Source: a virus
Lineage: Duplodnaviria; Caudoviricetes
DNA: 59,303 bases
Reading direction: 5' to 3' (one strand)
IMG/VR virus record: IMGVR_UViG_3300005573_000105
Coordinates: 1-59,303 of that record
In this document: positions 35,253-39,776 of the stretch, piece by piece
Numbering within the stretch: the stretch's first letter is position 1
Layout of the letters: every line of letters begins with the position of its first letter
Notes under the pieces: generated by a model
Database searches by the model: none
The model's input: only the letters and a program-made list of their open reading frames with translations
Told to the model about the DNA's origin: nothing
Program-made: the position numbers and the translations under genes

Positions 35253-38200
35253 CTACCTCGCCGCCACGTTGAAGCTGATTGCCGAGTAGGTTATGTTCGC
35301 CGCCGTCTGGTTGCAAACTTCATACTGCACGGTGTTAGCAGCCGACGGCCATATATGAAACACCATTCCGCCCGACGCTCCCCACCCCACTAAGGAGGCC
35401 GGGTCTGAGGTGTAGCCCGGAAGAAGGGCCATCGTGGTCGTGACTCCGGGAATGTTCACAGAACCAGGAGTACTGCAGCTATGTGCGTTTTGCGTCCCGG
35501 AAGAGATGCTGACAATAAAATCCGGTAGAGGCTGAGCCGTCCATGCGCCAGACACGCATACGTAGAATGTCGATCCAGACGAACCTGCTGTGTTGCTGTA
35601 GAGGCTTCCACTGTTGCAGCTTCCAGATGGAGCCGCTGTACCATAAGTCCAGAGTGCAGAAGGAGACGGCCCAATTCCTGCACCAGATACTATACTTCCA
35701 CCAGCGCTAATTGAGCCGGCAAATGTGTTCGTTCCGGTTCCAGTATATTGCGTGTTGGTCGCACTGGTTGCCTGAATGGATGAAACCTCCGAACCGTTAT
35801 ACACGAAGAACTCCACCGGCGTCGTCATCGATGTGGTCGCGGAAAAGGCGGGGCAGCTTAACAGACCTGCTGTGGATATAGTGCAGTACGGATCTCCAGG
35901 GAGCCCAAACCATCCGTAGTTGCTTGAAGAACCATCGGCGGTGTAATTGAAACCCCACTGGAAATCGTCGTTTACGTATGCCGCTGTATCTCCTAATTGA
36001 CTGTAGACATTATCTCCGGAAAGAAGGCCTGATACAGCTCCAGATTGCATCAGGTTGTAGGTTCCCGATCTTGTGGCATTTTGCGTGATGCTTCCAGTAA
36101 ATGCTGGTGAGGCCAGCGGTGCTGCGCCGGTCACTTGTCCGACTGAGTAGTCCCCACTAGCGGCCACGACAGCACCTGTGCGGCCAAATACACTGCTTAC
36201 TGCCGCCGCTGCGCAGTTTGTCCCATCCGCCAGGCAGATGCTCTTGTTCGCCACCGTGGCCCCTGCTGGCATCTTGAAGTTTGTGTATTGGCTAAAGTCC
36301 CGCGTCGATCCCGCAGCTACGTTGCTTATCTTGTCCGTGGCGAGAGGAATCACAGTGTTTGTGTTACTTATGGAATAGCAGCCGGTATTCAGGTACATTA
36401 GCGTAGGCACAACGGTAGAGCCAGTGTTCGAGGACGGCTTAGTGACGCCGCAGAGATAGATAGCGCTGGACGTGCCGTTCCAAAAGTCCATCTGCTGGCC
36501 TATGTACGATCCCGAGTTAAACGTGTCGGTCGCAGAGGCACCGGATTGTACGGCGGACTCAATCCCATAATTGCCGTTCGAGCCGTAGAACTTCAGGAAC
36601 GGGTAGCCCCCATACTGCTGTAGCTGAAGCGTGTACTGCCACTGGCTGGTGGCCGTATTCCATGAGTCAGCCTCAATGCCTGCGTTTCCGTTCGTGTTGT
36701 TTGGCCCTCCGGAAAGACAGAAGCGGGTCAGCGAATGGGTCTGCCCCGAAGGCGGAGTGTCATACCAGCAATAACTGTTCTGGTATTCCTCTCCAAAGGG
36801 GGGCTTGGCGTTAGGGATTCCTGATCCGGGATTTTCCCCGACGACCGGATCACTGCCCGTGGGAGGGTCGATAAGACTTATTTGCTGGCCTGTACCGGTG
36901 TTGGCGTAATACTTCCCCGGATGGGAGGCGGAACTACCAGCGTTGACAAGTATGGCGTTAGATACGCCCAGGTTATAACCTATCCCGGTGTCTGTGGTTC
37001 CGGTTTCGTTTGCAGGAAAGTTGCCCGACACGGCCCCAGCGAGCACCTTGATGCAACCCTGGCCGAGCGGTTCAGTGGCCGTGGTCGAGCATGCGCCCCA
37101 CCATTCATCGTCTCTTGTATCGACATCTTGGGCCTCGGCGGCCACTGGGCTGTATTGATTAAGCACGTTTCCAACTATGACCTCTCCGCATATGTTCAAC
37201 CCGCTGTCCGAGCAATAGGCTGCCCAATTCGTTCCCGTAGGGTCGATGGACTCTAAATGATCGTTTGCCAATTCAAATGTTCCATAGCTTGGCTGCGGAT
37301 CGACGACGACAATCGAGCCAGACGGCCACGCCGTGTTGGCGGGCGCAGTTGAGCCAGCTTGGTTTCTGGCAGTTATATGAAGCTGCCCATCGCTGGCAAA
37401 GTTTCCCAAAACCACCTCAAACTGCCCCTTGTTGACCCCGGGAACGTAGGCGGAGGGGGCCGAAGAGCCACTAATAAAGTCCTGCGGCTCGATTGCATAT
37501 TCGCCGCCCGAAACGGTGTTCGCGTCGGACGGGTCGTTAATATAATTCGGAAACCATTCCGTGCTGGCCACCGCTATCGTCCACGGAGCCGACGATCCAG
37601 TCATTGCTCCGGTTGCCGAGGTGTAGACCGGATTCCCCCCGGCTACCAGAGAAGCATCCGTATGGGGCTGCCCATAGATAGGAAAGCCCTCGAAATAACA
37701 GTTCTTGACAGTGCTTCCAAAAGTAGAGGACTTGGATACAGCGGGCATGAACCAGTTGGCCTTAATGGAGCACCCATCAAGTTCGACGGCAGCGCCGCTC
37801 ATGAAGAACGCGCCCTGATTCCAGTTGTCGGGGGCAATGGCGGGGAGCCATGTAGCGCCTGTCACCGTTGCCACCCCGTTCGCCGTCGTCGCCCACTGGA
37901 CTTCGAAGCACGGATTGGCAGACGTGCATAGGCCGCTGGGGTCGCTCGTAATTCCGTTGGTGATGGAAGTTGACTGATACTGCCCGTCCAGCACCGTACC
38001 CGTGGTGCCGCTTATCTGGAAGTAGTTTCCCGCATTGATTGGCGCAGTGCCGTCCGGAGTGGAGTTATGGTAAGTGCCATGAATGTAGGCGGTACCCGTC
38101 GTGCCATTTGCGCTGGCATACTCCAGCGTTCCCACGTTCCACTGATCGTTTGGGTACACTCCGTTTATGCAATTGGTACCGTAGCAATAGCCGCTGGAAT

Positions 38201-39776
38201 CCTCGCCGGGAGAATTCAAATTGATGCTGCGCCATCTTTCCTCGTTGCCCATTGCCAGAATAGGCCAGCGCACCGTATTTACGGTGATGTCATAGAATGA
38301 ACCGCGCTCTGTAGATCCGGCGGTGACTATTCCCCGGCCACCGCCATTTGACACCGTAACATGCTCGATATGGTATCCGCTGGAGTTCTGAATTTCTATC
38401 TCTGTGGCCGTGTATAGATGACCATCGGGTGTAAAAGTCTCAAGGTTGTATATTCCGCCCTCGGATGTCCAGACATTTGGGTTAGGATCATTTCCATTGA
38501 CGATGGTAAGTACGTTGCAGGTATCACAGGTCTGCTTGATGATGGTCGATGTCTTGCCGTCGCCGGTGATTTTAACGAAATTAGGAATGCGGAGGGCCGC
38601 GCTTATCTTATAAGTGCCAGCGGGAAAATAAAGGACCGGAGCGCCAAGGCCTTGATAATTCGCCTCAAGAAACGCCAGTGCTGCTTGAATAGCGCAGGTC
38701 GAGTCGTTTACGCCAGTTGGGTCGGCGGCGTTCGCGCAGCCAGAGGGAACTCCGAAGTCGGGATGCACTACGTTGACCCGTGGGAGCTTGGTCGCCGAGT
38801 AGGCGCTGTACACGTCCCCTGTGCCATAAAGTTGCGGCGTCGTCACTGATGTGGTTGCGGTCAGCGTGCTCACACTCACCGGGCTAGGCGTGGCACTTAG
38901 CGCCGCTGCAATCTGCGCTGAGGTCGCCACGGAAGGCGCACTCGAACCATTCAAATATGGGAATCCGGTACCGTTCAAGCCGCCCAATGAACTGCTAGTT
39001 AGATAATACTGCATCGCACCAGCCGTGCCGCCAGGAGGACTAATGTCGCAGCCTGTAGCCAAGGTGCACACCTGAGAACCGTTAGCCAAGAAGTTAGCGG
39101 CGGAACTTGTCGTGATATTCAACGATGTACCTGCGGTTACATTCACCGCGTCAACTGCGTTTAATGCAAGAGGGGCCGTACCTGTTTGGTTAAGCTGCAA
39201 TCCCGTCACGTTATCTGTGTTGGACAGAGTCAGCCCGCCTTGGCTGTACCAAGACCCGAGATTAGTGTCCTGTAGCGACAGCGCGCTACTACTGGTGAGG
39301 GAACTGCTGTTGGTAGAGGATAAGGTGATGGAGGTTCCCTTGACATTAAACCCGACGTTGCTAGCTCCGCCAAAGGTAAAAGAGTTTGCGGTTGTGACTC
39401 CGTAGTCTAATAGCGAATTCCCTACCGTATTGGCCCCAGTCCAGAGAGGGAGATACCCGCTAGTCCCTGAACCTGTGATTCCACCGCCGGTTCCGGAAAT
39501 TGTTTGACAAACAAACCCGCCGCCGGGTGTATAGTTAAGAGCGTGCCCACCATCTAATGGACAGGTCGTCGGTAGGGTCAAGTAGTCGATACTAGTAGCT
39601 GAGACGCTCACAGCCACTTGACCAGCCGCAGTCGGCACAGTACCAACCCCCCCGTTAACTGGAGGGAGAATACCTTTCACCTGCGTCTGCAAGTTGACCT
39701 GCGTCTGCGCTGCTAATCCAAGAGGAATGAGCATTGCAGAGATGAGCAGCAGCTTAGTGCCGATAGAACGCCACAT
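35253..39776 (-). CDS. Large tail fibre/tailspike with pectate-lyase-like beta-helix and N-terminal signal peptide
   Basis: MWRSIGTKLLLISAMLIPLGLAA-Q; VKGILPPVNGG, DPTGVNDSTCAIQAA..LYFPAGTYKIS, VSSVFGRTGAV, APLASPAFTG; follows gpI. Confidence 0.8.
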   Translation of the reverse strand: MWRSIGTKLLLISAMLIPLGLAAQTQVNLQTQVKGILPPVNGGVGTVPTAAGQVAVSVSATSIDYLTLPTTCPLDGGHALNYTPGGGFVCQTISGTGGGITGSGTSGYLPLWTGANTVGNSLLDYGVTTANSFTFGGASNVGFNVKGTSITLSSTNSSSLTSSSALSLQDTNLGSWYSQGGLTLSNTDNVTGLQLNQTGTAPLALNAVDAVNVTAGTSLNITTSSAANFLANGSQVCTLATGCDISPPGGTAGAMQYYLTSSSLGGLNGTGFPYLNGSSAPSVATSAQIAAALSATPSPVSVSTLTATTSVTTPQLYGTGDVYSAYSATKLPRVNVVHPDFGVPSGCANAADPTGVNDSTCAIQAALAFLEANYQGLGAPVLYFPAGTYKISAALRIPNFVKITGDGKTSTIIKQTCDTCNVLTIVNGNDPNPNVWTSEGGIYNLETFTPDGHLYTATEIEIQNSSGYHIEHVTVSNGGGRGIVTAGSTERGSFYDITVNTVRWPILAMGNEERWRSINLNSPGEDSSGYCYGTNCINGVYPNDQWNVGTLEYASANGTTGTAYIHGTYHNSTPDGTAPINAGNYFQISGTTGTVLDGQYQSTSITNGITSDPSGLCTSANPCFEVQWATTANGVATVTGATWLPAIAPDNWNQGAFFMSGAAVELDGCSIKANWFMPAVSKSSTFGSTVKNCYFEGFPIYGQPHTDASLVAGGNPVYTSATGAMTGSSAPWTIAVASTEWFPNYINDPSDANTVSGGEYAIEPQDFISGSSAPSAYVPGVNKGQFEVVLGNFASDGQLHITARNQAGSTAPANTAWPSGSIVVVDPQPSYGTFELANDHLESIDPTGTNWAAYCSDSGLNICGEVIVGNVLNQYSPVAAEAQDVDTRDDEWWGACSTTATEPLGQGCIKVLAGAVSGNFPANETGTTDTGIGYNLGVSNAILVNAGSSASHPGKYYANTGTGQQISLIDPPTGSDPVVGENPGSGIPNAKPPFGEEYQNSYCWYDTPPSGQTHSLTRFCLSGGPNNTNGNAGIEADSWNTATSQWQYTLQLQQYGGYPFLKFYGSNGNYGIESAVQSGASATDTFNSGSYIGQQMDFWNGTSSAIYLCGVTKPSSNTGSTVVPTLMYLNTGCYSISNTNTVIPLATDKISNVAAGSTRDFSQYTNFKMPAGATVANKSICLADGTNCAAAAVSSVFGRTGAVVAASGDYSVGQVTGAAPLASPAFTGSITQNATRSGTYNLMQSGAVSGLLSGDNVYSQLGDTAAYVNDDFQWGFNYTADGSSSNYGWFGLPGDPYCTISTAGLLSCPAFSATTSMTTPVEFFVYNGSEVSSIQATSATNTQYTGTGTNTFAGSISAGGSIVSGAGIGPSPSALWTYGTAAPSGSCNSGSLYSNTAGSSGSTFYVCVSGAWTAQPLPDFIVSISSGTQNAHSCSTPGSVNIPGVTTTMALLPGYTSDPASLVGWGASGGMVFHIWPSAANTVQYEVCNQTAANITYSAISFNVAAR

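Follow-up and report, generated by a model that had tools for sequence, protein, structure and literature searches.

A candidate Sec-exported, cysteine-paired tail fibre with a predicted N-terminal docking strand in a contractile-tailed phage

The window analysed here, IMG/VR virus record IMGVR_UViG_3300005573_000105 (Duplodnaviria; Caudoviricetes), represents a virus record in full, at 59,303 bases, and has no terminal repeat. Its minus strand carries, at 35253..39776, an open reading frame (ORF) of 1507 amino acids plus a stop that is best explained as the gene for the phage's main receptor-binding tail fibre (or tailspike), a protein with an N-terminal attachment module, a beta-helix and an exchangeable distal tip that is made as a preprotein. 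We propose that late in infection the Sec system would export this preprotein and signal peptidase I would cut it between A23 and Q24 (A23/Q24), after which oxidative folding by the host in the periplasm, of the VKOR type in Acidobacteriaceae, would staple the fibre with about 15 short-range disulfides. Cleavage would make a new N-terminus, QTQVNLQTQVK, a beta-strand able to enter one of three immunoglobulin-like (Ig-like) repeats of the baseplate wedge protein gpI, such that one gpI chain would hold the three N-termini of a trimeric fibre. Because gpI and the baseplate would be built in the cytoplasm, an exported fibre could dock only when holin and endolysin merge the compartments, or in the lysate; joining at or after lysis would thus be a logical consequence of export. 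We regard the whole chain, with docking only when lysis merges the compartments, as evenly poised between holding and failing.

The fibre N-terminus reads MWRSIGTK-LLLISAMLIPLGL-AA/QTQ, and its first 23 residues (39708..39776, minus strand) are predicted to be a Sec-type signal peptide. R3 and K8 provide a basic n-region (MWRSIGTK) ahead of the hydrophobic h-region LLLISAMLIPLGL, 15 uncharged residues lie between K8 and Q24 (best 12-residue Kyte-Doolittle mean 2.41), and the c-region AA ends at the predicted signal peptidase I site, A23/Q24, with A at both -1 and -2 and with L at -3. Aligned sites in relatives read ALA/Q, LVA/Q and GNA/Q. A lipoprotein signal was ruled out by the lack of a Cys near the cleavage site, and a Tat signal by the missing twin arginine. 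The signal calls made here and below combine sequence pattern, a crude rule of our own that carries no formal error rate, and comparison with relatives, and several of the counts were made by eye. The ATG at 39776 that opens the ORF stands 6 nucleotides 3′ of a ribosome-binding site, AGGAG (39783..39787, minus strand), and the first 23 nucleotides of the ORF overlap the end of the gpI gene; no AGGAG-type site precedes either of the in-frame codons TTG29 and GTG33.

Comparison with relatives bears on both the start and the nature of the hydrophobic stretch. A search with residues 1-330 against 1.84 billion representatives found 11 proteins, and four of them (P0020, P0023, P0024 and P0025) align with the fibre from the first residue (alignment A2). 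In A2, A23, Q24 and then Q-V-K-G-x-L...N-G-G-x-G are invariant, while the hydrophobic part varies in sequence and length; a variable hydrophobic stretch ahead of a fixed A/Q junction argues for a cleaved signal rather than a structural helix. Six loci with this N-terminal module each have an ATG 5′ of the hydrophobic stretch, most of them with a purine-rich, Shine-Dalgarno-like site upstream (judged by eye), and the Val codon of QVKG is GTG, GTA or GTC across relatives, so that an internal start is not conserved. Signal-like N-termini also recur on proteins that share only the central part of the fibre. The whole-protein query returned 18 homologues, confined to residues ~330-1046 and, where named, from Acidobacteriaceae; the crude signal rule was passed by 15 of them, the other three being a partial sequence (P0012) and two proteins with longer N-termini (P0011 and P0015). 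The N-terminal module of these core homologues differs from that of the fibre and shows, behind the signal, a conserved Q-V-T-T-T-T-V start. In 27 of 38 genome loci with the core the conserved mature start is directly preceded by a hydrophobic stretch, a count from which three further flags on internal stretches were discarded and in which one ORF leaves its contig and the L003 pattern was called by eye; 37 of the 38 loci are named as Acidobacteriota, and one (L038) is labelled Candidatus Babeliales. The initial annotation had described a Sec-like N-terminus ending in A before Q, and the basic n-region, the hydrophobic h-region and the junction ...LAA/QTQ are indeed present as a sequence pattern. 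A check for a true start 3′ of the hydrophobic stretch left the ATG behind AGGAG sound and turned up no conserved internal start. To judge from these patterns, the gene product is probably a preprotein that is exported by Sec and cleaved at A23/Q24.

The cysteines of the fibre provide a second line of evidence. In a protein of which G, S, T, A and N make up 52%, Cys accounts for 2.0% (n = 30), and the earlier description of 30 Cys in closely spaced consecutive pairs survives randomization. The 15 consecutive pairs are 72/90, 237/243, 347/361, 417/420, 531/536, 617/623, 669/693, 855/863, 896/908, 1003/1020, 1109/1133, 1181/1188, 1298/1308, 1387/1407 and 1434/1488. Neighbouring Cys lie a median of 12 residues apart within a pair and 89 apart from one pair to the next. 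The within-pair distances add up to 228, whereas random placement gives 719 +/- 130, and no arrangement among 100,000 came as close; a spacing of no more than 25 residues in 14 of the 15 pairs was likewise never matched in the 100,000. The first pair forms the loop C-x17-C (residues 72-90; 39507..39563, minus strand), in which P0023-P0025 hold both Cys and P0020 has lost both (A2).

The pairs also behave as units among relatives. Alignment A3 compares the core with 27 relatives obtained by translating genome loci; its 28 members are related and do not amount to 28 independent trials. In A3 the Cys count is even in all 28 sequences, Cys 347/361 and 679/695 are co-present or co-absent in all 28, and Cys 531/536, 855/863 and 1003/1020 are invariant. 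C438 has C399 as its partner in 12 sequences, C433 in 10 and C432 in 3, which sums to its 25 occurrences. Such gain, loss and partner switching of Cys pairs is, as read from the alignment, the pattern that disulfides produce. Moreover, Cys density follows the signal. The C-terminal fibre motif (residues ~1193-1228) is found in 279 shorter proteins, and of the best 120 of these 279, which were used here, 103 start with M: 17 are signal-like by the rule, 85 are not, and one more, P0143, looks signal-like by eye and was left out of both groups. The signal-like proteins have a median of 1.50 Cys per 100 amino acids and the signal-less ones 0.43, a difference of ~3.5-fold (Mann-Whitney p = 4e-5, 102 proteins). 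Within this set P0060, which has a signal and 8 Cys, aligns over its full length with the signal-less P0034, which has 1 Cys, and in P0060 the one conserved Cys has acquired a partner. Likewise, a Cys pair occupies equivalent positions of the gpI-type repeat described below in a signal-bearing 209-amino-acid protein (locus L145) and in P0028, and is lacking in gpI, in a 145-amino-acid protein of L134 and in L162. About 15 local disulfides very probably form in this fibre, somewhere outside the cytoplasm.

A separate observation concerns the ~420-amino-acid fibre-motif family to which P0060 and P0034 belong. It occurs in two forms with alignable N-termini, one signal-bearing with 8-11 Cys (P0060, P0077, P0088 and P0091) and one signal-less with 1-3 Cys (P0034, P0038 and P0044).

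The residues that would become N-terminal after cleavage are those predicted to attach the fibre to the baseplate. gpI (39754..40989, minus strand; likelier start at ATG 40923) is signal-less, contains 1 Cys and matches PF09684 at residues 37-176 (E 1.1e-08). Its C-terminus consists of three tandem internal repeats of ~70 amino acids (40216-40425, 39991-40194 and 39757-39966; together 39757..40425, minus strand), the predicted sockets for three fibre N-termini. A complex of gpI residues 180-411 with three copies of fibre residues 24-130, from which the signal residues were left out, was predicted with its own five-row alignment and scored 0.82 (runs 0.83, 0.82 and 0.72), against 0.00 for the best of three controls; in calibration, 58 of 80 solved complexes came up to the score mark, as did 2 of 110 mismatched pairs. 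Contacts agree by 100% between the runs, and the predicted local distance difference test (pLDDT) value of the partner is at least 86. In the predicted complex each gpI repeat takes one fibre copy, residues 24-28, 30-32 and 34 of each copy facing gpI residues 222-251, 297-326 and 375-404, and the contact residues fall within the predicted docking strand QTQVNLQTQVK (residues 24-34; 39675..39707, minus strand). By sequence, no complex resembling that of gpI and the fibre was found in the PDB, and the gpI repeats had only a weak match there (E = 0.016), to a K1 capsule depolymerase.

Strand and repeat keep company elsewhere. The docking strand is conserved in P0020 and P0023-P0025 and at loci L127-L136 and L139-L203. 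The repeat unit ends the gene just 5′ of a signal-plus-strand protein at L131/L135, L132, L134 and L136, and it is fused to the C-terminus of a strand-bearing protein at L128-L130. A scan of viral contigs with the repeat unit gave 200 confirmed stretches, and the strand motif was found near the repeat in 13 of 79 further viral loci searched. In 11 of these 13 the strand is preceded by a hydrophobic stretch ending in [GA]A plus 2-3 residues; in the other two (L162 and L163, of identical sequence) the hydrophobic stretch is absent and the strand stands at the very N-terminus, MGQK/IDLTRQVQG. The model supports binding of the fibre N-terminus to gpI, and it is likely that the fibre is a virion part, held in the gpI repeats by its new N-terminal strand.

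Several arrangements of the repeat and strand were seen in passing. The ~70-amino-acid repeat is a widespread viral domain that seems to act with an N-terminal strand as a chain connector. At L162:2260-5495 the repeat closes an 883-amino-acid tailspike, and the gene that follows opens with the strand and holds another repeat; at L145:4587-5657 two consecutive proteins both bear signals, the first ending in the repeat and the second beginning with the strand. A 68-kb viral contig (L127:4129-14937) has five consecutive genes with signal-like starts, for products of 370, 1301, 382, 217 and 1067 amino acids, one of which is P0020, bearing the docking strand.

Gene position is in keeping with a role in the virion. 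The left arm of the record is given to replication, with a fusion of family A DNA polymerase and uracil-DNA glycosylase (UDG) and with RecA-like, SbcC-like, gp32-like and clamp-loader-like proteins, and a short plus-strand block encodes terminase, portal and a Mu F-like protein. The minus-strand late block begins with protease/capsid-like, adaptor, sheath, tube, tape measure, gpU, gpD-like, gpV, gpW, gpJ and gpI genes and continues with the fibre ORF, a 286-amino-acid ORF, several small ORFs, an endolysin gene and, last, a 373-amino-acid ORF. gpJ matches PF04865 (5e-42) and is 37-39% identical to its counterparts in BcepMu, phiE255 and their relatives. By this tail gene order and the likeness of gpJ, the fibre gene has the position that fibre genes classically take in P2/Mu-type tails, and the initial annotation had likewise placed a 1507-amino-acid gene directly after gpI; the ORF and the gpJ/gpI order have both been verified. 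Among the scanned ORFs, which leave out several of the record, there was no other fibre candidate without a signal, so that the status of the fibre as a virion part is supported by its position, by the want of a signal-less candidate among those ORFs and by the predicted docking. The same scanned set, again short of several ORFs, contained no integrase, and a prophage reading was dropped in view of the whole virus record, the replication module of its own, the scanned ORFs free of integrase and the lack of a terminal repeat.

The fibre and spike motifs to which the initial annotation had pointed were all located: VKGILPPVNGG at residues 33-43, VSSVFGRTGAV at 1193-1203, APLASPAFTG at 1219-1228, and D.T.AIQAA...LYFPAGTY within the PF12708 match at residues 351-430 (44.4 bits, cut-off 27). 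The first overlaps the common fibre motif G-x-L-P-x-x-N-G-G-x-G (residues 35-46; 39639..39674, minus strand), in which G35, L37, N41, G42, G43 and G45 are invariant in A2. G-x-L-P-x-x-N-G-G is a fibre motif and not a secretion feature, because three copies of it lie inside a signal-less podovirus fibre of 715 amino acids (record MW202701).

The body of the fibre (residues 330-1046; 36639..38789, minus strand), which holds 8 of the 15 Cys pairs, is predicted to be a right-handed beta-helix and is likely an exopolysaccharide depolymerase. Residues ~330-1046 are 36-50% identical to Acidobacteriaceae proteins. An AlphaFold2 model of residues 320-1100 is all-beta, with a pLDDT of 70 overall and with 10-residue block means mostly of 85-96 over the first ~520 residues, and the best Foldseek matches of the core model are the tailspikes of Geobacillus virus E2 (ORF18), Dettilon, Sf6 and HK620, and alginate epimerases (E 6.6e-08 to 1e-03, probability ~1, TM-scores 0.15-0.38, identity 8-14%). 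Alignment of the core against viral contigs gave 197 confirmed stretches, and the best 80 of these 197 match only the PF12708 region (~330-490), so that the core at its full length is, among these best matches, confined to Acidobacteriota-type genomes. By sequence homology the fibre belongs to no described fibre family among the PHROGs or in 50,697 phage records, with which it shares only short fibre motifs: the PHROGs scan returned no family, tblastn with the whole fibre and with its first 130 residues gave no match in those records, and a search of the PDB by sequence gave none either.

The distal tip has a different history. A fibre motif, VSSVFGRTGAV...GAAPLASPAFTG, at residues 1193-1228 (36093..36200, minus strand) is 70-90% identical to the corresponding part of many of the 279 shorter proteins and contains a module junction, beyond which residues 1217-1507 (35256..36128, minus strand; 4 Cys pairs) are identical at 287 of 291 positions (99%) to residues 81-371 of P0031. 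P0031 is a 371-amino-acid protein with a signal of its own, encoded on a contig of 1548 bases; the match begins at G1217, and the junction lies exactly at GAAPLASPAFTG. Given this near-identity to a signal-bearing protein, the tip is by all appearances a module moving between signal-bearing fibres, and the junction at GAAPLASPAFTG points to a recent exchange. In the model of residues 1040-1507 the mean pLDDT is 45, and the last ~95 residues alone are confident.

Some relatives of the core lie in a cluster of a different kind. At three Acidobacteriaceae loci (L003:7335-22110, L006:7313-22078 and L033:9275-21790) a signal-bearing core relative of ~1500 amino acids forms part of a conserved phage-like cluster in the order regulator, sigma-like protein, core relative, large terminase, HipA-like kinase, portal, a capsid-like ORF of 322 amino acids and head-tail adaptor. 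Its families were assigned by scanning the L003 ORFs and one L006 ORF and by matching the N-termini of the other L006 and the L033 ORFs. In L003, the sole locus scanned for it, gyrA lies just 5′ of the cluster. The cluster could be what is left of a prophage that became fixed, or an element resembling a transfer agent.

The relatives of the core and those of the neighbouring 286-amino-acid protein suggest that the host is a member of the Acidobacteriaceae/Acidobacteriota. In the three Acidobacteriaceae genomes reached through the loci, VKOR scored above the cut-off in every one, and DsbB was found in none. The claim of the initial annotation that the fibre is exported and oxidatively folded has come through where it was probed at the level of sequence, that is, at the start codon, in the recurrence of the signal, in Cys covariation, in the association of signal and Cys, and in the presence of VKOR; as a whole it is partly supported. 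Its premise that tailed-phage fibres are poor in Cys stands as a tendency and fails as a rule, given the signal-less L162 tailspike with 10 Cys.

A number of observations weigh against the route proposed here. To our knowledge tailed-phage fibres all assemble in the cytoplasm, and co-translational assembly in that compartment would equally be compatible with the 23 nucleotides shared with gpI. L is one of the less common residues at -3 of a cleavage site. The 10 Cys of the signal-less 883-amino-acid L162 tailspike include several that lie close together (judged by eye), some signal-less motif proteins among the 85 carry 8 to 14 Cys, and a released tail-like particle, AlgoCIS, is reported to hold a functional disulfide (Alg11 C268-C1000). 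The complex prediction, with three copies and an alignment of its own, is unlike the jobs on which its score was calibrated and does not address docking of an uncleaved N-terminus. The host, as said, is inferred from relatives. Finally, at two of the five core-homologue loci whose neighbours were inspected (L004 and L013) there are no phage genes, which indicates that the beta-helix can serve as an ordinary secreted enzyme; at the other three the core protein adjoins the terminase-portal-adaptor cluster.

This last point bears on an unlikely alternative, akin to the second reading of the initial annotation (a protein retained in the envelope), that the protein is a free depolymerase, secreted late in infection to strip exopolysaccharide in the envelope or outside it, easing release or removing receptors, and never part of the particle. 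The protein has a signal peptide; its core is common to signal-bearing Acidobacteriaceae proteins named 'glycosyl hydrolase family 28-related', L004 and L013 show it away from phage genes, two more signal-bearing, Cys-rich proteins are encoded downstream of the fibre gene, and free forms of phage depolymerases are mentioned in a review, PMC6116005. Against it stand the gene's place in the fibre slot, overlapping gpI, a mature N-terminus predicted to dock on gpI (0.82 against 0.00 for the best control), a strand and repeat that travel together in other viral contigs, and the fibre motifs and exchangeable tip; the scanned ORFs would, moreover, then include no fibre candidate at all.

Classical assembly in the cytoplasm, in which the hydrophobic N-terminus would be buried, otherwise proteolysed or simply ignored and the Cys would oxidise after release into oxic soil, meets other difficulties and seems to us quite unlikely. 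A structural helix should conserve its sequence, yet only hydrophobicity and the A/Q junction are kept; members of the core family whose N-terminal modules are unrelated nonetheless begin in a signal-like way; Cys density tracks the signal within homologous families; and the signal-less L162 relative opens directly with the docking strand, as would fit a need for a free N-terminal strand. Against these stand, in favour of cytoplasmic assembly, its being the rule, as far as we know, for all studied tailed phages, the coupled synthesis suggested by the gpI/fibre overlap, the 10 Cys of the signal-less L162 tailspike, and the disulfide that is reported to work in released AlgoCIS particles.

We consider a dual fate, in which part of the product is exported as free enzyme and part escapes export or starts downstream and is built into virions in the cytoplasm, to be improbable: although in-frame TTG29 and GTG33 exist, and many phage depolymerases occur both bound and free according to PMC6116005, codons 29 and 33 have no ribosome-binding site, the GTG is not conserved in relatives, and a form starting at residue 33 would lack the predicted docking strand 24-34. 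That the signal is an annotation artefact, with a true start downstream and the hydrophobic stretch untranslated or a by-product of the 23-nucleotide overlap with gpI, is scarcely credible in view of the AGGAG at the right distance, the ATG 5′ of the hydrophobic stretch in at least six independent loci and the same layout in 15 of 18 homologues.

If export and late joining do occur, tailed-phage assembly would have an extra step, in which a virion part is made in another compartment and added when lysis mixes the compartments, and Caudoviricetes virion assembly would not always be finished in the cytoplasm. This would account for very stable, cross-linked spikes in soil phages of acid-loving, slime-producing hosts, and would offer a design for disulfide-stapled depolymerases and for fibre swapping through a strand-into-repeat connector. 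It also predicts that particles lacking the fibre should be able to take up fibres from the periplasm in vitro. For annotation the warning is that a protein with a signal peptide may still be structural, a point of consequence when hosts are predicted for soil viromes. More tentatively, the fibre may represent a widespread and unrecognised class of tailed-phage receptor-binding proteins that are exported by Sec, stapled by disulfides in the periplasm and joined to cytoplasm-built baseplates only at lysis, the connector being an N-terminal strand made by signal peptidase that enters a ~70-amino-acid Ig-like repeat and is reused in chains to build modular fibres, as in L145.

Other genes of the late strand touch on the same theme. 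The 286-amino-acid protein (34390..35250, minus strand), whose gene starts 2 nucleotides after the fibre stop, has a signal-like N-terminus, MKKITLALPLFLLW..., followed by 6 Cys; it matched no family in Pfam or PHROG, its nearest Atlas clusters are hypothetical proteins of Acidobacteriota, and it could be a periplasmic partner or chaperone or a fibre tip protein. The last late-strand gene (29179..30300, minus strand) encodes a fibre-like protein of 373 amino acids with a signal-like N-terminus, 12 Cys after it and fibre-like motifs, which again matched no family in Pfam or PHROG. Next to it lies the gene of a signal-less endolysin, a glucosaminidase (30302..30838, minus strand; PF01832 1e-13 and endolysin PHROGs), whose action at lysis would merge cytoplasm and periplasm; a small membrane protein of holin type is our guess. 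Elsewhere on the minus strand, an ORF of 597 amino acids (54766-56559) matches PHROGs for head maturation protease and major head protein and may be a protease-capsid fusion, an 829-amino-acid protein (11985-14474) joins a uracil-DNA-glycosylase-superfamily domain (41-147) to a family A DNA polymerase (453-815), and an ORF of 394 amino acids (57707-58891), with baseplate-assembly and tail-lysozyme-like PHROG matches, opens the late strand, a long way from the tail module.

Among known systems, the fibres of P2-/Mu-like myoviruses, encoded after gpI/gp48 (BcepMu-type tails), occupy the same slot behind baseplate J and I; the present fibre departs from them in its signal peptide, in a gpI with three extra C-terminal repeats, and in having no Pfam, PHROG or tblastn match to described phage fibres. 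With the beta-helix tailspikes of Sf6, HK620, Dettilon (gp208) and Geobacillus virus E2 (ORF18) it shares a right-handed beta-helix, as predicted, a PF12708-type helix start and the likely role of a receptor-binding, glycan-cutting virion protein, and it differs from them in being 2-3 times longer, in its 15 Cys pairs and in its attachment by an N-terminal strand. None of these four tailspikes is known to have a signal peptide. The Acidobacteriaceae proteins annotated as 'glycosyl hydrolase family 28-related' or as pectate-lyase-superfamily members (P0003, P0016 and P0017) resemble the fibre in 36-50% identity over ~330-1046, in signals and in covarying Cys pairs, and differ in the N-terminal module, in the C-terminal half and in that baseplate genes are not adjacent. 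The Acidianus two-tailed virus completes its virion morphogenesis outside the cytoplasm; it is archaeal, of another architecture, and no separate part of it is exported.

In its use of Sec before lysis, the fibre would join other late phage proteins sent by that host pathway, namely the fOg44 endolysin Lys44, the signal-arrest-release (SAR) endolysins and the T4 antiholin RI. PMC6116005, PMC8385771 and PMC8878798 report Sec signals on phage endolysins and on RI, and in the first two the Sec-exported lysis proteins wait in the envelope before lysis. These are lysis proteins and not virion parts, and they never meet a cytoplasmic particle. In the full-text literature, subscription journals being outside the coverage, no tailed-phage fibre, spike or depolymerase was found described as bearing a Sec signal; such signals came up only for endolysins and antiholin. 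The export and extracytoplasmic cross-linking of a tail fibre, joined at lysis, would be a step not known for tailed phages. The filamentous-phage protein g3p resembles the proposed fibre in that it, too, binds the receptor, belongs to the virion and is synthesised with a Sec signal, and it has periplasmic disulfides. Its gIII signal peptide is named in PMC9402515. The difference lies in assembly, for inoviruses are put together at the membrane and extruded, whereas the phage of this fibre is contractile-tailed, with a head and tail built in the cytoplasm.

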